A stretch of 64,000 nt of DNA from Candidatus Eiseniibacteriota bacterium (GTDB lineage Bacteria; Eisenbacteria; RBG-16-71-46), in NCBI GenBank assembly GCA_031364845.1, contig JANLWX010000018.1, positions 12,265 to 76,264 of the forward strand, written 5' to 3'. The notes under the pieces are model-generated. The model worked only from the letters and a program-made list of their open reading frames with translations, did not search any database and had not been told where the DNA came from. Of the stretch, positions 653 to 49,836 are shown one piece after another. Made by a program: the position numbers and the translations under genes. Within the stretch, counting starts at the first letter, position 1, and the number at the start of each line of letters is the position of its first letter.

Positions 653-3409
653 TCAGCGTGCGAGTACCACACGACCGACAGCGCTCACGCCGCGTGCCGT
701 GTATCGGACAAAGTACACGCCCGCCGCCACTCGGCCCCCCGCCCCTCTTCCGTCCCATGTCGCCAGGTAGCGTCCCGGCCGACGCACACCCTCCGCGAGC
801 ACAGCGACGAGGCGCCCCTGTACGTCAGTAACACTGAGCCGTACCGGGGTCTCCCGTGGCACGCCGAACTCGACCTGCACTGAGCCCCTGCTCGGGCTCG
901 GCGACACTGGTCCGAGCATGAAAGCGATCACGGCCGAACCCGTCACGACAGATAGCGGGCCGAATGTCACCACGTCGCCATCTGGCGAAGCCACGAGTCG
1001 ATAATAGTAAGTGCGGCCCGACTCGATGTTTCGATCAAGCAGGATGGTGGTTTCGCCTTCGACTCGAGGCTGGTCGTTCACCACGTTCCACGGACCGGTA
1101 TCGCTCTCGCTCCGCTCGAGATGCGCGGCAGCGATCTGCCCCGCGACGCCGAATTGCCAGCGCACCTCGACACCTTCACTCGTCCAACGGGCTTCGAAGA
1201 GAGAAAGTACCAGTGCAGTTGTCTCACTTCCGACATTCAGCAGTACCGAGACCGTACTGGAGAGACCGTTCGTCGTGGCCAGGTCCGGCTTCCCGTCATC
1301 GTTCAGATCCCCGATCACTACGGAGTTGGGAAAGCCCCCCGTCCCATGTTCGTAGTCGCCTTTGGGCCCAAACGTTCCATCCCCTTTCCCGCGCAACACA
1401 GAGACGGTGTTGGATCCCGAATTCGCCACGACCACGTCCGAATTTCCGTCACCGTTCAGGTCGCCGACGGCCAGAGAGAGAGGATCGAGCCCGGTTTCAT
1501 ATTCGCCGCGCTCCGGCCCGAACGTTCCATCCCCATTACCGAGCCGCACCCTGACCGTATTGCTGTAATAGTTGGCAACGATCAGGTCCGGCTTCAGGTC
1601 TCCGTTCAGGTCTCCGATTGCCACGGAGACTGGAGACCCTGATGTTGGGTAGTCCCTTGTCGGACCGAACGTCCCATCCCCGTAGCCGATCAGCACTGAG
1701 ACCGTGTGGGCGTCCCTGTTCGCCACCGCCAGATCTGGCTTCTCGTCGCCGTTCAGATCCCCGATCACCACGGAGATCGAATAGCTCATTGTCGCGTAGT
1801 CCGCTTTCGGCCCGAACGTCCCATCTCCGTGACCCAGCAGCACCGAGATTGTTCCGGTCGAAATCGTCACGACCAGGTCCAGCTTGCCATCGCCGTTCAG
1901 ATCCCCGATCGCGACGGAAGTGGGTTGGTGCCCAGCTTCGCAGTTACTTGGCGGCCCGAACGTCCCGTTGCCGTTGCCCCACAGGATCGAGACCTTGTCG
2001 GAACTCGCGACCGCCAGGTCCGGCTTCCCATCGCCGTTCAGATCACCGATCGCTACGGAGTTGGAGTAGCCCCCCGTGGCGTAGTCAACCTTCGGCCCGA
2101 ACGTCCCGTCGCCGACTCCCAGCAGCACCGAGACCGTCCTCACGACGTCATTCGCCACCGCCAGATCCTGCTTGCCGTCTCCGTTCAGATCCCCGATCGC
2201 CACGGACTGCGGGTCTGCCCCCGCGGCGTAATCGCTCCTCGCCCCGAACGTTCCATCCCCGTTTCCCAGCAGGGACGACACCGTCTGAGAGAGGTTATTC
2301 GCTGTCGCCAGGTCCGGCTTGCCGTCCCCATTCAAATCACCGATCGCCATGGAGCGGGGCTGGCTTCCCGTGTTGTAATCGCTCTTCGGCGCAAACGTTC
2401 CATCCCCGTTCCCTAGCAATACCGACACGGTGCTGAAAGAGTGGTTCGCCGTCGCCAAATCCAAATTTCCATCCCCGCTCAGATCACCGATCACAACGGA
2501 GAAAGGATTACCCCCCGTCGCGTAGTCGCTCTTGGGTGCGAGTGTCCCGTCACCATTCCCCAGTAGCACCGACACCGTATTGATATTGGAGCCACCGTTC
2601 GCCACCGCCACGTCAAGCTCCCCGTCGGCGTTCAGATCCGCGATCGCTACCGAGTTGGGTTCCACACCAACCGCGTAATCGCTCTTCGGCGCGAACGTCC
2701 CGTCTCCGTTTCCCGGCAGCACTGAAACCGTATTGGAGCCGAGATTCGCCGCAACCAGATCCGGCTTCCCGTCTCCGTCTAGATCCGCGATCGCCACGGC
2801 GCTGGCCGTGCTGTCTGTCACATAGTTGCTCCCCGCCCCGAACTTCCCGTCCCCCTTCCCGAGCATTACCGAGACCGTGTTTCGCCCATAGCCCGGATTC
2901 GCCACGGCGAGATCCGGCTTCTCGTCGCCGTTCAGATCTCCGATCACCACGTTGAAAGGACCACCCCCCTGCCAATATGCAGTCGGCCGACCGAACGTCC
3001 CGTCCCCGTTGCCTAGTAGCAACGTGACCGAGTCTCCGGTCCCCACCGCTAGGTCCGGCTTCCGATCCCCGTTCAAGTCTCCGATCGCCACGGACGAGAC
3101 GTAGTTCGCCATCGGGTAGTTCCTCATCGGCCCAAACGTGCCGTCCCCGTTCCCCAACCGCACCGAAACACTTCCGGAATTGTTTGGGGGGTCGGCGTTC
3201 GCCACCACCACGTCCGGCTTGCCGTCCCCGTTCAGATCCCCGATTGCCAAGGCGAAGGGGTAGCGCCCCGCGTCGAACGAGAGGAACGGTGCTGCGAAGA
3301 GCGGATCAGCCACAGCCGTCGACGGGCAGAGTGATCCCAGGACGAACGCGAGCGCGATCGAGGCGACAACGATTGCCCTCATGCAGAAGGACCGAGCCGA
3401 GAACTTCAT
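653..3409 (-). CDS. Secreted FG-GAP (integrin-alpha-like) repeat protein, ~13 Ca-binding DxNxDGxxD repeats, FN3-like domain and T9SS-type C-terminal sorting domain
   Basis: 921-aa ORF; signal peptide MKFSARSFCMRAIVVASIALAFVLG. Repeated GDLNGDGKPDL motifs every ~60 aa. C-terminus ...AGVYFVRYTARGVSAVGRVVLAR is typical of Por/T9SS CTDs. The ATG at 3409 with a GAGGTG RBS is preferred over the GTG at 3418. Confidence 0.8.
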   Translation of the reverse strand: MKFSARSFCMRAIVVASIALAFVLGSLCPSTAVADPLFAAPFLSFDAGRYPFALAIGDLNGDGKPDVVVANADPPNNSGSVSVRLGNGDGTFGPMRNYPMANYVSSVAIGDLNGDRKPDLAVGTGDSVTLLLGNGDGTFGRPTAYWQGGGPFNVVIGDLNGDEKPDLAVANPGYGRNTVSVMLGKGDGKFGAGSNYVTDSTASAVAIADLDGDGKPDLVAANLGSNTVSVLPGNGDGTFAPKSDYAVGVEPNSVAIADLNADGELDVAVANGGSNINTVSVLLGNGDGTLAPKSDYATGGNPFSVVIGDLSGDGNLDLATANHSFSTVSVLLGNGDGTFAPKSDYNTGSQPRSMAIGDLNGDGKPDLATANNLSQTVSSLLGNGDGTFGARSDYAAGADPQSVAIGDLNGDGKQDLAVANDVVRTVSVLLGVGDGTFGPKVDYATGGYSNSVAIGDLNGDGKPDLAVASSDKVSILWGNGNGTFGPPSNCEAGHQPTSVAIGDLNGDGKLDLVVTISTGTISVLLGHGDGTFGPKADYATMSYSISVVIGDLNGDEKPDLAVANRDAHTVSVLIGYGDGTFGPTRDYPTSGSPVSVAIGDLNGDLKPDLIVANYYSNTVRVRLGNGDGTFGPERGEYETGLDPLSLAVGDLNGDGNSDVVVANSGSNTVSVLRGKGDGTFGPKGDYEHGTGGFPNSVVIGDLNDDGKPDLATTNGLSSTVSVLLNVGSETTALVLSLFEARWTSEGVEVRWQFGVAGQIAAAHLERSESDTGPWNVVNDQPRVEGETTILLDRNIESGRTYYYRLVASPDGDVVTFGPLSVVTGSAVIAFMLGPVSPSPSRGSVQVEFGVPRETPVRLSVTDVQGRLVAVLAEGVRRPGRYLATWDGRGAGGRVAAGVYFVRYTARGVSAVGRVVLAR

Positions 3410-3567
3410 CGTAGGCACCTCGGGGGCAGGAGGGCATCCAGGCGGGAAAGCGTGTCCTCATCGCTTCTACGGTGGGTGAGGCAGAGTGAAGAATTTCCCC
3501 GTACGCGACGAAGCATAGCACCCTCCGGGGGGGCAAAAACACGATGGATGGCCCCGCCAGCGAAGTC

Positions 3568-5358
3568 CTACGCCCACCACTCTTCCACCGCGCTCACGAC
3601 CTCGGGCAGGTTCTCGACGGGGTCGGGATAACCCTGCTTCCACGTCGCGTCGATTCCGAGCGGGCCGCGACAGGTGAGCCACGCGCCGCGCGTCTCGGTG
3701 GCGGCGGGGATGATGTCGCGCGCGCAATCGAAGCGCGTGAAGATGCCCCACAGCAGAAGCTCGTCGTCTTCGAGGGGCACGTCCGGGCTCACGGCGACAA
3801 TCAGCTTCACGGCCGCGTACTCGGGACGATGGATGAGCCGCTCGACGAGCGCGCGACCGTCGCCGTGGGTCTGCACGACGAGCATCGCACCCCACGCGAG
3901 GCGATGCGCCTTCGCGGTGTCGTCGAACGTGCGCGGGTCGGGAACATTCGACGGCACATCAGCGCCGCGGCCGCGCGCGGCAGCGGAGGGCACTACACCC
4001 GCGCTCCCGACGCTGCGATCCTTGGTCTGCGCGTCGATCACCATCTTGCTGCCGAGGTTCATCGTGTAGCTCGTGAAGTCGAGCGTGTCGAGCGGCACAT
4101 TCGCCAGCAGCATGAAGTCCTCGGCCGGATCGAAGTTTCGCGCGATCGCCTGGAACACGGCGGCGCGATCGCGCGGATTCACGTCCTCGTCGACCAGCAC
4201 GATCGCCTTGGTGAGCGAGAGCTGGCCGGTGCCCATGAGCCCGAGTGCGGTCTTCCTGCCTTCCTTCGCGAAGCGGTTCTCGACCGCGACCACGAGCAGA
4301 TTGTGGAAGCCGGCTTCGAAGTACGCCCACAGGTCGACCACTTCCGGATGGATCACGCGCAGGATGCCGGCGAAGAACTCCTGCACCGCCTCGCCCATGA
4401 ATTTGTCTTCCTGCGGAGGCTTGCCGACGATGCTCGCCTGGAACACAGGGCGGCGGCGATGCGTGACCGTGTGCACCTGGAATACCGGGAAGGGTGCGGC
4501 GTGCGAGTAGTGTCCGAAGTGATCTCCGAACGGGCCTTCCTGCCGGCGCTGGTTCGGCGGGACGAAGCCTTCGATCACGAACTCGGCGTCGGCGAGCACG
4601 TCCATGCCGATCGTGCGCCCGCGCGTGAGCCGCGTGGGAGCGCCGCGCAGGAATCCGGCGAACGCCAGCTCGTCGATGCCTTCAGGCAGCGGCGACACCG
4701 CGGACAGCAACGTCGCGGGATCCGCGCCCACGTGCACGGCGACCTCGAGTCCTTCGCCGCGCTTCTCGGCGGCGTGATAGTGGAAGCCGCCGCCCTTTCC
4801 GATCTGCCAGTGCATGCCGGTGGTCTTCGCGTCGTAGACATGGATGCGATAGATCCCGAGATTGCGCTTGTGCGTTTCGGGGTGTTCGGTGACGACCAGC
4901 GGGAACGTGATGAACCGCCCGCCGTCGTGGGGCCACAGCTTGAGGATCGGCAGCGGATCGAGATCCGCGCCGAGCGTTCCCTCCTGCGACGGCGCTCGCC
5001 CGACATGCGCGGGACGCATCGCGAGCATGCGGCCGGCGCTCGGACGCAGCTTCAGCAGGTCGGCGAGTGCGCGGGGCGGCACCGCGTGCAGGATCTCTTC
5101 GAGCTCGGCACCGACCGAACCCGGCGTGCGGCCAATCGCCCACTCGATGCGCCGCCGTGCCGCGAGCACGTTGACCGCGAGCGGGAAGCGAGCGCCGCGC
5201 ACGTTTTCGAACAGCAGGGCGGGGCCTTCGAGCTTCGCTTCGCGGCACGCGATCTCGGTGACTTCGTACGCCCAGTCGACCTCGCGCGTGATGCGCTTCA
5301 GATCGCCGCGTGCTTCGAGGTGGTCGAGAAACGCCGACAGTGTTCGGAAACCGGTCAC
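3568..5358 (-). CDS. ubiD: UbiD-family prenylated-FMN-dependent decarboxylase (MqnM/UbiD-like)
   Basis: 596 aa; N-terminus MTGFRTLSAFLDHLEARGDLKRI and the overall length are typical of UbiD. GTG start overlaps the ubiX stop (GTGA). Confidence 0.85.
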   Translation of the reverse strand: MTGFRTLSAFLDHLEARGDLKRITREVDWAYEVTEIACREAKLEGPALLFENVRGARFPLAVNVLAARRRIEWAIGRTPGSVGAELEEILHAVPPRALADLLKLRPSAGRMLAMRPAHVGRAPSQEGTLGADLDPLPILKLWPHDGGRFITFPLVVTEHPETHKRNLGIYRIHVYDAKTTGMHWQIGKGGGFHYHAAEKRGEGLEVAVHVGADPATLLSAVSPLPEGIDELAFAGFLRGAPTRLTRGRTIGMDVLADAEFVIEGFVPPNQRRQEGPFGDHFGHYSHAAPFPVFQVHTVTHRRRPVFQASIVGKPPQEDKFMGEAVQEFFAGILRVIHPEVVDLWAYFEAGFHNLLVVAVENRFAKEGRKTALGLMGTGQLSLTKAIVLVDEDVNPRDRAAVFQAIARNFDPAEDFMLLANVPLDTLDFTSYTMNLGSKMVIDAQTKDRSVGSAGVVPSAAARGRGADVPSNVPDPRTFDDTAKAHRLAWGAMLVVQTHGDGRALVERLIHRPEYAAVKLIVAVSPDVPLEDDELLLWGIFTRFDCARDIIPAATETRGAWLTCRGPLGIDATWKQGYPDPVENLPEVVSAVEEWWA

Positions 5359-9000: not shown

Positions 9001-9905
9001 GTGGCAACCGCGCGCGCGCGAAGCGATTCCGACTGCGTGAGCCAGACTCCGGCGAGCACCAGCACGGTCGACACCACGAATCCCGCGGGCAGCGGTTCGC
9101 GCAGGAACATCCACGCCATCGCGACGGTGAACAGCGGCTGGAGGTTGGTCATGATCGCGACCGAGGCTGGCTTGAGGTGCTCGAGCCCCCAGAACCAGAT
9201 CACGTAATTGAGCGCCGAGGTCAGCCAGGCGAGGTACAGCAGGCCGCTCCATGCGGGCGCCGAGATTCGTGCCGGGTGAAACTGCAGCAGGCTCACGAGG
9301 CCGATCGGCAGGAATGCGATCGTGCCGGCGAGCATGGCCTGGGCGGTGACGACCAGCGATCCGTAGCGGCGGGTCACGGTCCGGCCGAGCACGAGGTAGA
9401 GCGCCCACGTGACGACGGCGAGCAGGATGACGAGGTCACCGCGCAACGATGCCGCCTCGAAGTGCAGGCCACGCTGCAGCAGAAGCGTGAGGACTCCCGC
9501 GAACGCAAGAGCGATCCCACCGATCGCAGCCGCTGTCGGGCGGGTCGAGGCCGAACTCATGCCGAAAAGGACCACGAACGCCGGCGTGAGCGCGTAGAGG
9601 AGTGCCGCGTGCGAAGCGCTCGACCATTGCATGCCGATCAGGAACAGTCCCTGGTTGAGCAGCACGCCCAGCAGCCCGAGCAACACGATGCGGGGCCGAT
9701 CGGCCCGCGCAATCCGGACTCCGGGCCGCAGGAAGCGCGCGACCGGCCACAGCACCAGCGTGGCGAGCACGAAACGGAACAGCGCGAGCGGAAGGGGAGG
9801 AAACTCGGCGAGCGTGCCCTTGGCGACGAGAAACGTGCCGCTCGCAATCATGACGTTCAGCAACAGCGCCGGATACAAGAGCGCCGGTGGCGAGGCGGAG
9901 TTCAT
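8997..9905 (-). CDS. EamA/DMT-family transporter
   Basis: 10-TM profile with duplicated EamA halves. Start taken at MNSASPP. Confidence 0.7.
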   Translation of the reverse strand: MNSASPPALLYPALLLNVMIASGTFLVAKGTLAEFPPLPLALFRFVLATLVLWPVARFLRPGVRIARADRPRIVLLGLLGVLLNQGLFLIGMQWSSASHAALLYALTPAFVVLFGMSSASTRPTAAAIGGIALAFAGVLTLLLQRGLHFEAASLRGDLVILLAVVTWALYLVLGRTVTRRYGSLVVTAQAMLAGTIAFLPIGLVSLLQFHPARISAPAWSGLLYLAWLTSALNYVIWFWGLEHLKPASVAIMTNLQPLFTVAMAWMFLREPLPAGFVVSTVLVLAGVWLTQSESLRARAVAT

Positions 9906-10402
9906 CACCTCCGCGGAAGCGGAGACGGATTCGGGTTGCGGGAGATGGGCATGGGTCACGCGCATGGACCCCGCACATTACAACGCCGCACGCGGGCAGC
10001 GCACTTCGCGGCCATGATCGACTGCTTATGTGCGCCGGCCCCGCGATGGATGTCGTGCGTGCTGTTCCAACTCCCCGACTGACAAGGTAGCGGTGGTGGA
10101 GTTGCTTCGGCCAATCGGCCCCCGATTGCGATCAACCTCCGCGAATCCGGTCCTCCGCTCCTTGCCCGTCGTGGTCGAGATCATGTGGATCTCGAAGACT
10201 CTCCATCGCAATGAGCGGACCAACCGCGTCGGTCGTCATGGACTCGCGCGAAAGGCCTGCAAACACACGCGCATGTCGGTGTTCGTGCGGACGAGTCGGG
10301 TGTTCGCCGACGGACTGGGTGTCCGTGGGGTTTCCACATCCGTCGCGGCGTTGACACTCGAGACAGAGAAATCACCCCCTGTGATTTCTCTGCTTGACGG
10401 AG

Positions 10403-10416
10403 TGCACGGACGTGCA
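10403..10416. promoter_or_regulatory. Candidate LexA operator TGCAC-GGAC-GTGCA in the lexA promoter spacer (putative -35 TTGACG 10394-10399, -10 TAGCAT 10418-10423)
   Basis: Perfect TGCNC-N4-GTGCA palindrome 61 nt upstream of the lexA ATG. It matches the LexA box I recall for Fibrobacter succinogenes (FCB group). Its position implies autoregulation. Confidence 0.5.
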
Positions 10417-10476
10417 CTAGCATTCCCGGGTGCCAGGTCCAAGAATGGACCCTCAACGTTTTGAAAGAAGGGATCT

Positions 10477-11079
10477 ATGCGGAGCGATCGAACGCGCGAG
10501 ATTTTGAGCTTCATCGAGGACTTCACGCGCGAGCGCGGATATCCGCCAACCATTCGAGAGATCGGCAAGGCGTTTTCGATCGCGTCGACGAACGGCGTTC
10601 GCTTCCACCTTCACAAGCTCGAGAAGCAGGGCATGTTGAAACGGAGCGGAAAGATCTCCCGGGGGATCGAGAGCATGCGCGCCGTGACGCCGGTGACCGG
10701 CGGAATTCCGATTCTCGGTCGCGTGGCGGCAGGTCAGCCAATCTCGGCGGACCAATCGTATGACGGCACACTCGAAATCGATGACCTCTTTGGTCGGCCC
10801 GGCGAACTGTTCGCATTGCTCGTGAAGGGTGACAGCATGATCGGCGCGGGCATCTACGAGAACGATCACGTCGTCGTGCGGCATCAGGAAACGGCGGCGG
10901 CTGGCGAAATGGTGGTGGCGCTGATCGAAGACGAAGCGACCGTCAAATATTTCCAGCCCAAGAGTGATCGCGTCGAGCTGGTCCCAGCGAATCCGAAGTA
11001 CCAGCCGATCGTCGTCCGATCCGATGAAGAGCTTCGATTGCTGGGAGTTGTTCGAGGAGTGGTTCGCGTCATCAACTGA
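10477..11079 (+). CDS. lexA: LexA repressor (SOS response)
   Basis: 200 aa; N-terminal wHTH (REILSFIEDFTRERGYPPTIREIGKAF). C-terminal S24 peptidase with AG cleavage site and Ser/Lys dyad region (VKGDSMIGAGI ... ATVKYF). Confidence 0.9.
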   Translation: MRSDRTREILSFIEDFTRERGYPPTIREIGKAFSIASTNGVRFHLHKLEKQGMLKRSGKISRGIESMRAVTPVTGGIPILGRVAAGQPISADQSYDGTLEIDDLFGRPGELFALLVKGDSMIGAGIYENDHVVVRHQETAAAGEMVVALIEDEATVKYFQPKSDRVELVPANPKYQPIVVRSDEELRLLGVVRGVVRVIN

Positions 11080-11099
11080 CCTCGATGATGAGGTCCGAG

Positions 11100-11126
11100 A
11101 ATGGGAGCTCGCGCTCCCATTTTTTC
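11100..11126 (+). terminator. Rho-independent terminator downstream of lexA
   Basis: aATGGGAGC-tcgc-GCTCCCAT followed by TTTTTT. Confidence 0.6.
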
Positions 11127-11137
11127 GCGGTATTAAC

Positions 11138-11151
11138 TGCACATACGTGCA
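11138..11151. promoter_or_regulatory. Second LexA-box-like palindrome TGCAC-ATAC-GTGCA between a TATTAA -10-like hexamer and the tnpA RBS
   Basis: Exact match to TGCNC-N4-GTGCA, 19 nt upstream of the tnpA ATG (RBS AAGGGAGG at 11157-11164). Confidence 0.45.
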
Positions 11152-11169
11152 TCGGCAAGGGAGGATGTG

Positions 11170-11631
11170 ATGGTGGACAGCAGACTGACCCCCGAAGTTA
11201 CTGAGTCACTCGCAGTGCGATGGGAACCGGTATATCGGAGTCAGCTCCACTACCTCGTCACATGGGGAACGCGGGGTCGGCGGCCGGTGCTCAAGAATCG
11301 TCACGTGCGCTCATTGCAGACGCTCGTCCAGCAACTGTGCGCGGACCGTGGATACGGACTGCTCGAAGTCGCGGCAGGTGATGATCACGTGCATGTGCTG
11401 GTCGCGATTCGACCTTCGCAGAGCATCGCGAGCGTCGTGCGCGAAATCAAAGGCCGCTCCGCCGCGACACTGCTTACGGATTTCCCCGAACTCAGAGTGT
11501 GGCTGCGCGGAAATCTCGTGTGGGACGAACGCTACTCGGTCGAGACCGTGAGCGGAGTGCGCGTCGATCGAGTGCAGAATCGGCTGCGCGCTCTGCACGG
11601 CCCTCAGGATGAGTTGGCCCGCGCGAGCTGA
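11170..11631 (+). mobile_element. tnpA: IS200/IS605-family Y1 (HuH) transposase TnpA; no tnpB partner
   Basis: 153 aa; HuH motif HVHVLVAI, conserved IKGRSA helix, catalytic Tyr in WDERYSVETV. ATG 11170 has a strong RBS. TCGATGATG-containing hairpins flank the ORF (11078-11095, 11640-11686). Confidence 0.8.
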
Positions 11632-11766
11632 TTCGCGAGGGTTCGATGATGCCTCGGTACCTCCGGGCTTTCATCGAATGATGTTTCACGAACGACACCG
11701 CGGCGCTCCTGACGCGTGGCACCCGAAAGGTGCCGCGACGCCGGAATCACGTCTTCGCCTTCGACT

Positions 11767-12684
11767 TCATGGGGCGACGCGGGGTCGTCGTGAAAGACCG
11801 GTTCCATAGGACGCGAGCGCGGCGGCGAGGAGCACGAGCAATGCGCCGAGCCATTGAATCGCCGCCAGGCCTTCGCCGAGGGCGATCCATGCTGCTACCA
11901 CGGCGACCACGGGCTCGAGGGTCGCGAGAATGCCGGCTTCAGCGGCAGGCATGCGGCGCAGTCCGGCATAGAAGAGCGCGAACGGGATGAGAGCCGAAGT
12001 TACCGCGAGAAGCAGGAACACACCCCACATCGAGGCGTCGTAGCCGGCCGCGGCGATGCGCCATGGCGGTGTGACGATCGCCCACACCAGCCCCGCGACC
12101 AGGAACGTGTAGAAGAGGATCGTCTCGGGTGCGTAGCGCGCGAGAATTCGTTTCGAGTAGACGATGTAGAAGGCGAATGTGAAAGCGGTGCTGAAGCTGA
12201 TCGCCCAGTCGATCGGACGCGCGCGATCGAGTTGCGCGCCGTTGTTGCCGACCAGGAGCGCCGTGCCGACCATTGCCGCGGCCAGCGTGATGACAATGCG
12301 GCGGGTGAGGCGTGCGCCTCGCAGCAGTTCCCACAGCACGATCAACGAGGGAGCGAGGTACTGGATCAGGATCGCGAGTCCGACGCCGAGGACCGAAATC
12401 GAATGGTAGTAGCCACCCTGTATCGCGGCGACCCCGAGGACTCCGAGCAGCGCGAACGGTCCCCAGTCTCGCCGGTCGACCACGAGCGTTCGCGGGCGAC
12501 TCGATGCCATCCATACACCGAGGATCAAGGTCGAGAGCACGAGCCGCATCTCGACGATCGTCAGGGGTGGAATGTCGCGTTCGCGAAACATGAATCGAGC
12601 AAGGGTCGCCGAGGCGCCCCAGAACACCGTGGCCCCGAACACCATGAGGCGTCCGCGCGCGTGCTCGGTCGTAGAATCCTTCAT
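11767..12684 (-). CDS. EamA/DMT-family transporter
   Basis: Internal ATG 12684 (MKDSTTEH) followed by 10 predicted TM helices. Immediately downstream of the protease gene (4-nt gap). Confidence 0.7.
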   Translation of the reverse strand: MKDSTTEHARGRLMVFGATVFWGASATLARFMFRERDIPPLTIVEMRLVLSTLILGVWMASSRPRTLVVDRRDWGPFALLGVLGVAAIQGGYYHSISVLGVGLAILIQYLAPSLIVLWELLRGARLTRRIVITLAAAMVGTALLVGNNGAQLDRARPIDWAISFSTAFTFAFYIVYSKRILARYAPETILFYTFLVAGLVWAIVTPPWRIAAAGYDASMWGVFLLLAVTSALIPFALFYAGLRRMPAAEAGILATLEPVVAVVAAWIALGEGLAAIQWLGALLVLLAAALASYGTGLSRRPRVAP

Positions 12685-47290: not shown

Positions 47291-49836
47291 GAATCTCCGA
47301 GGACCGCAAGGAGAACGTCGGGCTTCCGGTCGCGGCGAGTGCGGCGTTCCTGAGGCGGGCGGCACTGCGCGCGGCACCGGCGTTGCGGTTCACCGGCACG
47401 CTCGAAGGCCTCGGCGAATCCGATCGCGCGCGGCTGCTCGATCGCGGGAACGCATCGGTGAACCCCGCCGTGGCGCAGGTCCGCGCGACCGTCGCGGACA
47501 TCGTTGTCCGCGTGCGGCGTGACGGTGATGCGGCGTTGCGCGAACTCGCGCGCGCCTACGATGGCGTCGATCTCCAAAGCTTCGAAGTGCCGCGCCCGGT
47601 CATCGATGGGGCACTCGCCGCGCTCGATCCGGCGCTGCGGTCCGCACTCGAGCGATCGGCGCGCAACCTGCGCCGCTTCCACGCCGCGCAGTTGCCGGCG
47701 CCGTTCGAAACCGAGACCGAGCCCGGTATCACGCTCGGCTGGCGCGCGGAGCCGCTCGATCGGATCGGCGTGTACGCGCCCGGCGGCACCGCGAGCTACC
47801 CGAGCAGCGTGCTGATGGCCGCGATCCCCGCGCGGGTCGCGGGTGTTCGAGAGGTCGTGCTGTGCTCCCCGCCCGATCGCTCCGGAGCGCCCGCGCCCGC
47901 CGTGCTCGCGGCCGCCGCGATCGCTGGCGTCGATCGCGTGTTCGCACTGGGAGGAGCCGGAGCGATTGCAGCACTCGCCTACGGCACGGCGAGCGTGCCC
48001 CGCGTCGATCGCATCGTCGGGCCCGGCAATCTCTATGTCGCCGCCGCGAAGCTCGCCGTCTCGCGCGACGTGCTGATCGACTCACCGGCCGGGCCGAGCG
48101 AGGTCCTCGTGATCGCCGATGCCACCGCCGACCCCGTGCGCATTGCGCGCGAGTTGCTCGCCCAGGCCGAGCACGACCCGCTCGCGTGCGCCGTGGCGGT
48201 GGCTATCGGCGAACGCGTCGCGGTCTCGATCACGGACGCGCTCACGGACCTGCTCCGCCGCGAGTCCGATCACGGCGGCCGGAACGACATCGTCGCCGCC
48301 GCCTTGAACGACCACGGCGGCGTGCTCGCCGCCGCATCGCTCGACGAGGCGATCGCATTCGCCAACGACTACGCGCCCGAGCATCTGCTGCTCGCGATCG
48401 CGGAGCCGCGCGCGGCACTCGCGCGCGTGCGCCACGCGGGGACCGTGTTTCTCGGCGACGGAGCATCGGTCGTGTTCGGCGACTACATGACCGGCGCCAA
48501 TCATGTGCTGCCCACCGGCGGGACCGCGCGCGCACGCGCGGGACTCTCGACTTTCGATTTCATTCGCACGACGACCTGGCAGGAGATCAGTGCCGGGGCC
48601 GCCGTTCGACTTGCGGACGATGTGGCCTTGTTCGCAGACGCCGAACGGCTCCCCGCACATTCCGCGGCCGCGCGCGCATTCGCAGGGGGTGAGCTCGCTG
48701 ATCTCACCGATCTGCCGCACGCGCGCGTCGCGGACCCGATGGCGGACGAGTCCCGGCACCTGCGCCCGCGCGCGTCTTACGCGGCGATCGCGCTCTACGG
48801 CGGCGAACACATTCCGTGCGCGATCGATCTCTCCGACAACACGAATGCATTCGGCACTCCGCCCTCGGCGCGCCGCGCAATGCGGAGCGCGCCGCGCGAT
48901 GCCGCCACGCGCTATCCGTCGGCCTACGCCGACGCGTTGCGCCGGGAACTCGCGCACTACGCCGGCGTGACGCCGGCCGAGATCGTGACGGGATGCGGAT
49001 CGGACGACATCCTCGATGCGGCGCTGCGCGCGTTCGCAGAGCCGGGCGATCGGGTGGCCCACATGGATCCCACGTTCAGCATGGTGCCGGAGTTTGCCCG
49101 CATGAACGGTCTCGAGCCGGTCGCAGTGCCGCTCGGCCCGGACTTCGACGCGGACTCCGACGCGCTGCTCGCGACGCGCGCGCGCGTCATCTATCTATGC
49201 TCGCCCAACAATCCGACCGGTACGCGGGTGTCCGCGCAGGCGATCGAACGCGTGGTGGCCGCTGCCCCAGGCCTCGTGATCCTCGACCGCGCCTACGCCG
49301 AGTATTGCGCGCTGGCGCCGCTCGCGGGGATCGCATCGGACCGCCTGCTGGTCGTGCGTACGCTGTCCAAGGCGTTCGGGCTCGCGGGGCTGCGGATCGG
49401 CTACGGCATCGGGGCGCCTTCGATGATCGAGGCGATCGCCAAGGCACGCGGGCCGTACAAGGTGAATGCGATCGCGGAGCGCGCGGCGATCGCGGCACTG
49501 ACGCACGATCGTGCATGGGTCGAGGCCGGCGTGCGCGCGGTGCGGCGCAACCGCCACCGTTTCGTGTCCGAGCTTCGATCGCTCGGCTTCGCCCCGCTGC
49601 CGTCGCGCGCGAACTTCGTGCTGCTGCCGGTGCCCGACGCGGCCCACACCGCAGCGCAGCTGCGGGCTCATGGCATCGCGGTGCGCCCGTTCCATGCGCT
49701 CACCGGCATCGGCGATGCACTGCGCATCACGATCGGTCGCCGGCGCGATCTCGACCGCGTTCGCGACGCGCTCGCGGAACTCGTGGGTGAGCGCGCTCCG
49801 GCCGCATCGGGCCCTCCTCCTCAGGAGGCGACGTGA
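47287..49836 (+). CDS. hisD: In-frame fusion of histidinol dehydrogenase (HisD) and histidinol-phosphate aminotransferase (HisC)
   Basis: 849 aa. The N-terminal ~480 aa carry HisD motifs (GPGNLYVAAAK, AEHDPLA). The C-terminal ~365 aa carry HisC motifs (SPNNPTG, the PLP-Lys motif LSKAFGLAGLRIGY). No stop codon between the two. Start ATG overlaps the hisG stop. Confidence 0.8.
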   Translation: MRISEDRKENVGLPVAASAAFLRRAALRAAPALRFTGTLEGLGESDRARLLDRGNASVNPAVAQVRATVADIVVRVRRDGDAALRELARAYDGVDLQSFEVPRPVIDGALAALDPALRSALERSARNLRRFHAAQLPAPFETETEPGITLGWRAEPLDRIGVYAPGGTASYPSSVLMAAIPARVAGVREVVLCSPPDRSGAPAPAVLAAAAIAGVDRVFALGGAGAIAALAYGTASVPRVDRIVGPGNLYVAAAKLAVSRDVLIDSPAGPSEVLVIADATADPVRIARELLAQAEHDPLACAVAVAIGERVAVSITDALTDLLRRESDHGGRNDIVAAALNDHGGVLAAASLDEAIAFANDYAPEHLLLAIAEPRAALARVRHAGTVFLGDGASVVFGDYMTGANHVLPTGGTARARAGLSTFDFIRTTTWQEISAGAAVRLADDVALFADAERLPAHSAAARAFAGGELADLTDLPHARVADPMADESRHLRPRASYAAIALYGGEHIPCAIDLSDNTNAFGTPPSARRAMRSAPRDAATRYPSAYADALRRELAHYAGVTPAEIVTGCGSDDILDAALRAFAEPGDRVAHMDPTFSMVPEFARMNGLEPVAVPLGPDFDADSDALLATRARVIYLCSPNNPTGTRVSAQAIERVVAAAPGLVILDRAYAEYCALAPLAGIASDRLLVVRTLSKAFGLAGLRIGYGIGAPSMIEAIAKARGPYKVNAIAERAAIAALTHDRAWVEAGVRAVRRNRHRFVSELRSLGFAPLPSRANFVLLPVPDAAHTAAQLRAHGIAVRPFHALTGIGDALRITIGRRRDLDRVRDALAELVGERAPAASGPPPQEAT

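Follow-up and report, generated by a model that had tools for sequence, protein, structure and literature searches.

We analysed a stretch of 64,000 nucleotides from a Candidatus Eiseniibacteriota bacterium (GenBank assembly GCA_031364845.1, contig JANLWX010000018.1, positions 12,265 to 76,264 of the forward strand), here called the window, whose own coordinates are used throughout. In this window the SOS repressor gene lexA is directly followed on the same strand by a gene encoding a small protein of the HUH (Y1) transposase fold, hereafter the HUH-like gene. An earlier interpretation made without database searches (the sequence-only reading) had described the pair as lexA and a solo transposase of the IS200/IS605 family of insertion sequences (IS), with the same LexA-type palindrome in front of both. 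The two genes probably represent a conserved DNA damage module in which the second member has descended from a transposase and lost its catalytic tyrosine. The features of the locus are listed in order of position.

10394-10423, plus strand: lexA promoter from a promoter scan, with −35 TTGACG at 10394-10399, an 18-nt spacer and −10 TAGCAT at 10418-10423.
10403-10416, no strand assigned: LexA box 1, TGCACGGACGTGCA, the perfect palindrome TGCAC-GGAC-GTGCA within the lexA promoter spacer, a predicted autoregulation operator.
10430-10451, plus strand: lexA leader element, GTGCCAGGTCC, followed by the hairpin GGTCC-AAGAAT-GGACC.
10477-11079, plus strand: lexA, 200 amino acids (aa), the self-cleaving SOS repressor with domains PF01726 (LexA_DNA_bind) and PF00717 (Peptidase_S24).
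11097-11125, plus strand: intrinsic terminator of lexA, with a stem GGGAGC/GCTCCC extended by AAU/AUU and then T6.
11138-11151, no strand assigned: LexA-type box 2, TGCACATACGTGCA, TGCAC-ATAC-GTGCA, 8 nt 5' of the Shine-Dalgarno sequence of the HUH-like gene.
11160-11164, plus strand: Shine-Dalgarno sequence GGAGG of the HUH-like gene, read directly; CCCCGCAGGAGG is kept in 55 of 77 relatives.
11170-11631, plus strand: HUH-like gene, 153 aa if started at ATG 11170 and 154 aa if started at GTG 11167, derived from IS200/IS605 TnpA and lacking the tyrosine.
11386-11394, plus strand: codons of the HUH motif His-Val-His (H74-V75-H76, numbered from 11167).
11581-11583, plus strand: codon of Arg139 (numbered from 11167), which aligns with the catalytic tyrosine (ISDra2 Y132, IS608 Y127).
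11614-11628, plus strand: C-terminal tail L-A-R-A-S, of the family pattern [L/F/W]-A-x-A-S at the C-terminus.

The first gene scores 180 bits against the LexA equivalog model TIGR00498 (cut-off 111), and its translation, read directly, contains the VAAG cleavage site (Ala-Gly) as well as the GDSM serine and TVKYF lysine of the Ser/Lys dyad. A scan of one genome per species yielded 77 distinct related loci, nearly all labelled Candidatus Eisenbacteria, against which the features were compared. The lexA promoter is the sole sigma70-like promoter detected in 10000-12200, and the exact palindrome TGCAC-N4-GTGCA lies about 70 nt 5' of lexA, within the −35/−10 spacer, in 75 of these loci, the layout cTTGAC-N4-box-cTAnnnT being kept across 76. 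A box placed in this way inside the promoter is the classical signature of LexA autoregulation, as predicted here from the arrangement of the sites. The terminator that had been proposed between the two genes is well supported by the fold of 11078-11130 (−27 kcal/mol, z=−4.5), and its pattern GGGAGC..GCTCCCGTTTTT recurs in the relatives' intergenic regions between lexA and the HUH-like gene; a simple terminator scan of the region failed to list the hairpin at 11097-11125.

The exact box occurs only twice in the 64-kb window, before lexA and before the HUH-like gene, just as the sequence-only reading had it (mean of 0.10 sites in shuffled sequence; none of 100 shuffles reached two). When the pattern is widened to TGCAC-N4-GT[GT]CA and searched in 589,467 bp of related loci, it is found at those two positions and nowhere else. 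Box 2 is present with at most one mismatch in 76 of the 77 loci, and its place is kept as well: in the relatives it lies about 13 nt past the lexA terminator, about 10 nt before CCCCGCAGGAGG and about 20-25 nt from the start codon. The second site had been described as an exact palindrome, which is right for the window, and most relatives instead carry the one-mismatch form TGCAC-N4-GTTCA (69 of the 77 loci); three further loci are exact, not counting the window, two have GTACA, and two are changed in the left half (GGCAC in L020 and TGCCC in L067). The spacer starts with AT in 63 loci, so that the prevailing form is TGCAC-ATNN-GTTCA, and perfect palindromes are found in four lineages, the window counted. 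A site matching this clade's LexA operator, as defined at the lexA promoter, is conserved 5' of the HUH-like gene across species. The sole locus without box 2 is L077 (WS_3 bin, 3900-4480), where an internal deletion and a frameshift after PELR disrupt the HUH-like gene, which may reflect a pseudogene or a misassembly. Among the one-mismatch boxes elsewhere in the window are CGCACCCAGGTGCA and CGCACGATCGTGCA, at 445-458 and 49502-49515; the total number of one-mismatch boxes in the window fits chance (10 found, 6.9 expected).

The LexA box of Fibrobacter succinogenes was reportedly described by Mazon and colleagues in 2004 as TGCNC-N4-GTGCA, an account that was not found in the open-access LexA papers searched. 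That the predicted operator is of this type had been claimed before and is supported by the box in the lexA promoter spacer of the 75 loci mentioned above, and also by the box upstream of recA in Fibrobacteraceae contigs. The recA genes come from a scan of metagenome contigs for an exact palindrome located 221-281 nt 5' of the Walker A motif of RecA (a 60-nt range), which gave 12 loci, i.e., five in one RecA clade, one from Chloroflexota and six without taxonomic assignment. In the five-member clade (L084, L087, L089, L090, L092), TGCAC-N4-GTGCA is followed directly by gTA about 30-45 nt 5' of the recA start; the RecA of L090, the sole clade member searched, shares 82-86% identity with RecA proteins carrying the names Fibrobacter or Fibrobacteraceae. 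Half-sites and spacing are those of the Fibrobacter box, and the arrangement of box and gTA at Fibrobacteraceae recA is that of the Eisenbacteria lexA promoter, whereas the host lineage differs and the predicted site before the HUH-like gene is hybrid, one of its halves being GTTCA. A recA gene of high G+C content in L081 (5800-5950), assigned to Chloroflexota by its close RecA matches, shows TTGACA-acc-TGCACACCTGTGCA-gTAATTT 58 nt 5' of its start, and this single case suggests that the box may also be used in some Chloroflexota.

The product of the HUH-like gene matches PF01797 (Y1_Tnp, E=1.5e-23) and exceeds the cut-off of the NCBIfam model for IS200/IS605 transposases (NF033573, 84.7 bits against 55), and no tnpB accompanies it, in agreement with the solo IS200/IS605-type HUH domain gene originally proposed. 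Since 153 aa matches the length of the homologues, ATG 11170 is likely to be the start rather than GTG 11167. The family profile finds the TnpA of ISDra2 (2XM3/2XQC) and 2FYX at E values of about 1e-17 to 1e-18 and the TnpA of IS608 at about 7e-12. The AlphaFold (AF2) model has a core with a predicted local distance difference test score (pLDDT) of about 90, and Foldseek places it closest to ISDra2 TnpA (E=3e-11) and IS608 TnpA (E=5e-9), followed by the structure 4ER8 (E=2e-4) of a tyrosine transposase associated with repetitive extragenic palindromic (REP) sequences, or RAYT. The NCBIfam RAYT model NF047646 gives 32.8 bits, below its cut-off of 80, and repeated intergenic palindromes of the REP type are absent from the 64-kb window, so the label "RAYT-like" given earlier does not apply. 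PADLOC matched the HUH-like protein to no defence system.

The HUH motif itself is retained as DHVH at residues 73-76, with H74 in 76 and H76 in all of 78 family sequences, and both histidines are invariant in two further family alignments. The catalytic tyrosine is not. The HMMER alignment of the family profile with 2XM3/2FYX is ungapped through the C-terminal helix and sets RERLRALH opposite QKYIESQH of ISDra2, and in a multiple alignment with tyrosine-bearing relatives and IS608 all of the latter have Tyr where the family has Arg. Position 139 is Arg in 75 of the 78 sequences and Tyr in none, while the Gln four residues on (the Y-x3-Q pattern of TnpA) is variable. Besides the HUH histidines, R132, H144, D120, E121 and E126 are near-invariant. 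The C-terminal tail is also conserved (A151 and A153 in 75 and S154 in 71 of the 78). Residues 147-154 have pLDDT below 50 and are predicted to be disordered; by likeness to C-terminal degrons or docking peptides, the motif [L/F/W]-A-x-A-S is a candidate for such a role.

In a collection of 5.8 billion proteins the family has 778 homologues that are 65-95% identical and mostly 152-155 aa long, their clusters being mostly seen on one contig each. A library of 1.84 billion representatives contains it as one full-length cluster (285 bits) and fragments, with the next full-length relative at 129 bits and ordinary IS200-like proteins at 100 bits or less. The few of the 77 loci labelled otherwise (Saccharimonadaceae, Terriglobales, Gemmatimonadales and others) are taken as binning or labelling errors because the lexA-HUH pair is arranged identically there. 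The gene order of the pair had been singled out as worth comparing among relatives, and lexA is found directly 5' on the same strand in 77 of 77 loci; a downstream EamA gene is common to 63, and the upstream neighbours vary. Each genome has one such locus, including the complete chromosomes OY970342.1 and OY970178.1. Three loci of the metagenome-assembled genome (MAG) MFD05942.bin.1.32 (L011, L070 and L078) were considered as paralogous pairs and rejected in favour of strain variants, being collinear throughout with 79-91% nucleotide identity and indels; three versions of one locus in this MAG point to a bin that mixes strains or species. Within the window, the segment 11078-11700 occurs once, and viral contigs contain no family member.

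Inheritance has been vertical: the matrix of pairwise identities for the HUH-like protein is correlated with that for LexA (r=0.80, Mantel 0/999), with mean identities of 64% and 67%, respectively, and proteins diverging between species to about 51% identity. Ratios of nonsynonymous to synonymous substitution rates (dN/dS) in 12 close pairs range from 0.02 to 0.24 in the HUH-like gene, which is under purifying selection, and from 0.05 to 0.44 in lexA. Outside the family, the protein P0127 (40% identical) has Arg at the tyrosine position and an HUH motif decayed to ERIH, and its gene lies directly 3' of a lexA 3' end and carries the degenerate site TGCCCGGATGTTCA, whereas tyrosine-bearing relatives are not next to lexA (P0138 follows purH and P0149 an unidentified open reading frame). 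Linkage to lexA is therefore associated with loss of the tyrosine. A further tyrosine-bearing relative, P0144, follows what appears by eye to be the 3' end of a DNA ligase gene. P0144 (L094, 90-240) and P0149 (L095, 80-350) have in their flanks repeated hairpins that are rich in GC and of the REP or IS-end type, for example GGGGCAATCC..GGTTGCCCC, twice, in L095, and nothing comparable is seen in the lexA-linked family. Many distant library matches (P0133, P0141, P0142, P0147, P0148 and others) are about 270-300 aa long with two tandem Y1_Tnp domains and are possibly single-chain dimers.

The HUH-like gene has ceased to belong to a mobile element. The sequence-only reading had allowed for an IS that DNA damage would license to transpose, with a 9-mer in hairpins on both sides of the gene as possible element ends, and this part of it fails. 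The 9-mer TCGATGATG is present in the window, its first copy starting at 11082 rather than 11083, and it occurs beside the gene in none of the 77 related loci, for which reason it was rejected as an IS end. The upstream hairpin is the lexA terminator, and the flanking hairpins are not common to the relatives, whose 3' flanks were not part of the hairpin search. The other possibility raised there, a domesticated Y1 HuH enzyme working with LexA, stands as far as domestication is concerned, given the complete linkage to lexA, the single copy and the vertical descent; "enzyme" of the Y1 type has become doubtful with the replacement of the tyrosine by Arg.

We consider it likely that lexA and the HUH-like gene together form a conserved two-gene DNA damage module, the second gene encoding a domesticated TnpA descendant without the catalytic tyrosine that is repressed by LexA and probably binds single-stranded DNA (ssDNA) or hairpins without cleaving them. 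In undamaged cells, LexA dimers would occupy the perfect palindrome in the lexA promoter spacer and also the slightly weaker near-palindrome (perfect in the window) before the HUH-like gene, where the repression site would sit between the lexA terminator and the ribosome-binding site. Upon DNA damage, RecA-stimulated self-cleavage of LexA would de-repress both genes. The HUH-like product, which has kept the TnpA fold and is probably a dimer, would then bind ssDNA or hairpin DNA exposed by the damage without making a covalent phosphotyrosine cut. By its position, predicted operator and conservation, the gene looks like an unrecognised component of the DNA damage response.

Several points weigh against this interpretation. 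The departure from the palindrome at box 2, G to T, is itself conserved in 69 of the 77 species, and the asymmetry could mean something beyond simple LexA binding. No sigma70-like promoter was detected for the HUH-like gene, neither by the promoter scan of window positions 10000-12200 nor in the related loci, and the hexamer TATTAA (11131-11136), once suggested as its −10 element, has no −35 partner and is not kept in relatives. With its HUH motif kept, the protein could still have a catalytic function. None of the 12 recA loci is traceable to Eisenbacteria, which is a weak negative given that the scan covered exact palindromes in a 60-nt range; within Eisenbacteria, the predicted regulon is deduced from the sites before lexA and its neighbour. 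The 77 loci were gathered by way of the HUH-like gene, so the constant linkage holds for loci that possess it, and all data are from metagenome bins.

An active IS200/IS605 element that happened to insert behind lexA, its transposase thereby coming under SOS control, is highly improbable. Matches above the cut-offs of both PF01797 and NF033573 would lead annotation pipelines to call such a transposase, and SOS control has been documented for ISCR transposases of the HUH type (PMC13393415). Such an origin is hard to reconcile with synteny in 77 of 77 loci across proteins as little as about 51% identical, with the missing tyrosine and tnpB, with the lack of conservation of the presumed 9-mer ends, with the low dN/dS values given above or with one copy per genome, where IS200 elements of subclass 1.1 have a mean of 4.8 copies at 99% identity (PMC6006769). 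It is also unlikely, though less remote, that the protein is still an enzyme, namely an SOS-induced ssDNA nuclease or strand-transferase in which water or a different residue serves as the nucleophile at the retained His-x-His metal site. Loss of the HUH motif, seen in part in P0127, would be expected of a dead enzyme, and here H74 and H76 are near-invariant, as are D120, E121, E126 and H144, the last being one residue past the metal-binding Gln position of IS608 and ISDra2. HUH enzymes generally cut via a phosphotyrosine intermediate, however, and the family has no conserved tyrosine in or near the C-terminal helix; Y123 is conserved in ordinary TnpAs too and is thus probably structural. All 12 published TnpA-Y1 subclasses keep the tyrosine (PMC6006769).

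Two further alternatives concern box 2. It seems quite unlikely that this site is not mainly a LexA operator and that the asymmetric TGCAC-AT-NN-GTTCA is instead a promoter element or the site of another protein, which could be the HUH-like protein itself, bound to an imperfect ssDNA hairpin of that sequence. IS200/IS605 TnpAs do recognise imperfect palindromes; the same mismatch and the AT-starting spacer recur in most loci, and the lack of a detected promoter for the HUH-like gene could mean that promoter elements overlap box 2. Yet 76 of 77 species share nine or ten of the ten specified bases and the 4-nt spacing with the lexA operator, mismatches occur in either half (as in L020 and L067), the palindrome is perfect in the four lineages already mentioned, and near-consensus sites are normal for SOS genes. 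Another arrangement that we regard as unlikely would make lexA and the HUH-like gene one operon, the latter gene being expressed only by read-through of a leaky lexA terminator, with box 2 as a roadblock rather than a promoter operator. The lack of a sigma70-like promoter between the terminator and the HUH-like gene and the short distance of about 20-25 nt between box 2 and the start codon agree with this, but the terminator is strong and conserved, and a second dedicated operator would be needless if the lexA promoter controlled everything.

By descent, the closest relatives of the HUH-like protein in the favoured two-gene module are the TnpA proteins of IS200/IS605 (ISDra2 of Deinococcus radiodurans and IS608 of Helicobacter pylori; subclass 1.1), which are its best matches in sequence and structure and share its fold, approximate length and DHVH motif. 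They differ in the Tyr of Y-x3-Q, which is Arg here with a variable Gln position, and the elements differ from the HUH-like gene, which is single-copy, vertically inherited, fixed by lexA, without tnpB and without conserved end hairpins that could be found. Transposition of ISDra2 is triggered by irradiation, so that a link between the TnpA fold and DNA damage exists. RAYT (TnpA-REP) genes are likewise domesticated, usually single-copy, host-kept members of the Y1 family (PMC8266576, PMC3333891). In contrast to the HUH-like gene, they keep the tyrosine and are flanked by REP sequences, of which the window has no counterpart, and the HUH-like protein scores below the RAYT cut-off and matches 4ER8 much more weakly.

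Clade-specific SOS genes located next to lexA are familiar from sulA, yneA, chiZ, dinB and imuA, and these resemble the HUH-like gene as lineage-specific neighbours with a LexA box of their own, none of them encoding a transposase-derived protein of the HUH fold. Integron integrases are also LexA-controlled genes of mobile elements. A LexA box before an HUH-family gene is known from the rcr genes of ISCR1/2/8 (PMC13393415). Unlike the HUH-like gene, which is fixed in the chromosome across 77 genome bins and lacks the nucleophile, the ISCR and integron genes encode active enzymes of mobile elements on plasmids or integrons in Proteobacteria and have an E. coli-type box. The closest functional parallels are the lineage-specific lexA-adjacent SOS genes and LexA-controlled transposase genes, for example ISCR rcr.

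A second regulatory element of lexA could reside in its leader. The motif GTGCCNGGTYC lies 13-14 nt past the operator in 59 of 76 loci, and the hairpin behind it has exact 5-bp stems in 29 of 66 loci (2.0 expected), with compensatory GGTTC/GAACC variants in three. RNAalifold gave no consensus for the leader, as the loop length varies between loci, and the hairpin was for that reason assessed by direct counting. On the other side of the promoter, a perfect 12-bp inverted repeat, CAGAGAAATCAC-CCCCT-GTGATTTCTCTG (window 10364-10392), ends 1 nt before the −35 hexamer of lexA; it has no T-run and its sequence is not kept in relatives. Rfam had no match in window 9900-12000. The window as a whole has a G+C content of 67% and looks origin-proximal because it contains parA, mnmG/gidA, yidC, rnpA and ubiquinone synthesis genes. 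Among its annotated open reading frames, no canonical SOS gene other than lexA was found. An FG-GAP repeat protein of 921 aa is encoded at 653-3418 by DNA with many near-identical internal 13-mers, which are the sole repeated words of the window.

In the published classification of TnpA-Y1 transposases, HuH and Y motifs occur in all 12 subclasses, and sequences without these motifs were discarded as probably non-functional (PMC6006769). The family described here lies outside that classification and would be a domesticated Y1 (HUH) family, and annotation pipelines will label its members "IS200/IS605 family transposase" where the evidence is for a fixed host gene without the catalytic tyrosine. 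The literature searched contained no paper mentioning LexA together with Eisenbacteria, and the locus gives a first view of the SOS system in an uncultured phylum, with a defined predicted operator, a putatively autoregulated lexA and a clade-specific partner gene. The system is tractable, with two small proteins and two sites of 14 bp each. More tentatively, the HUH pseudo-enzyme might be a core lineage-wide SOS effector or co-regulator that is induced as LexA is turned over, binds specific ssDNA or hairpins without cutting them and feeds back on repair or on the SOS circuit, with ssDNA at stalled forks, the imperfect hairpin of its own operator and the lexA leader hairpin as candidate targets. 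If true, this would be a kind of SOS function that has not been described in any other phylum.

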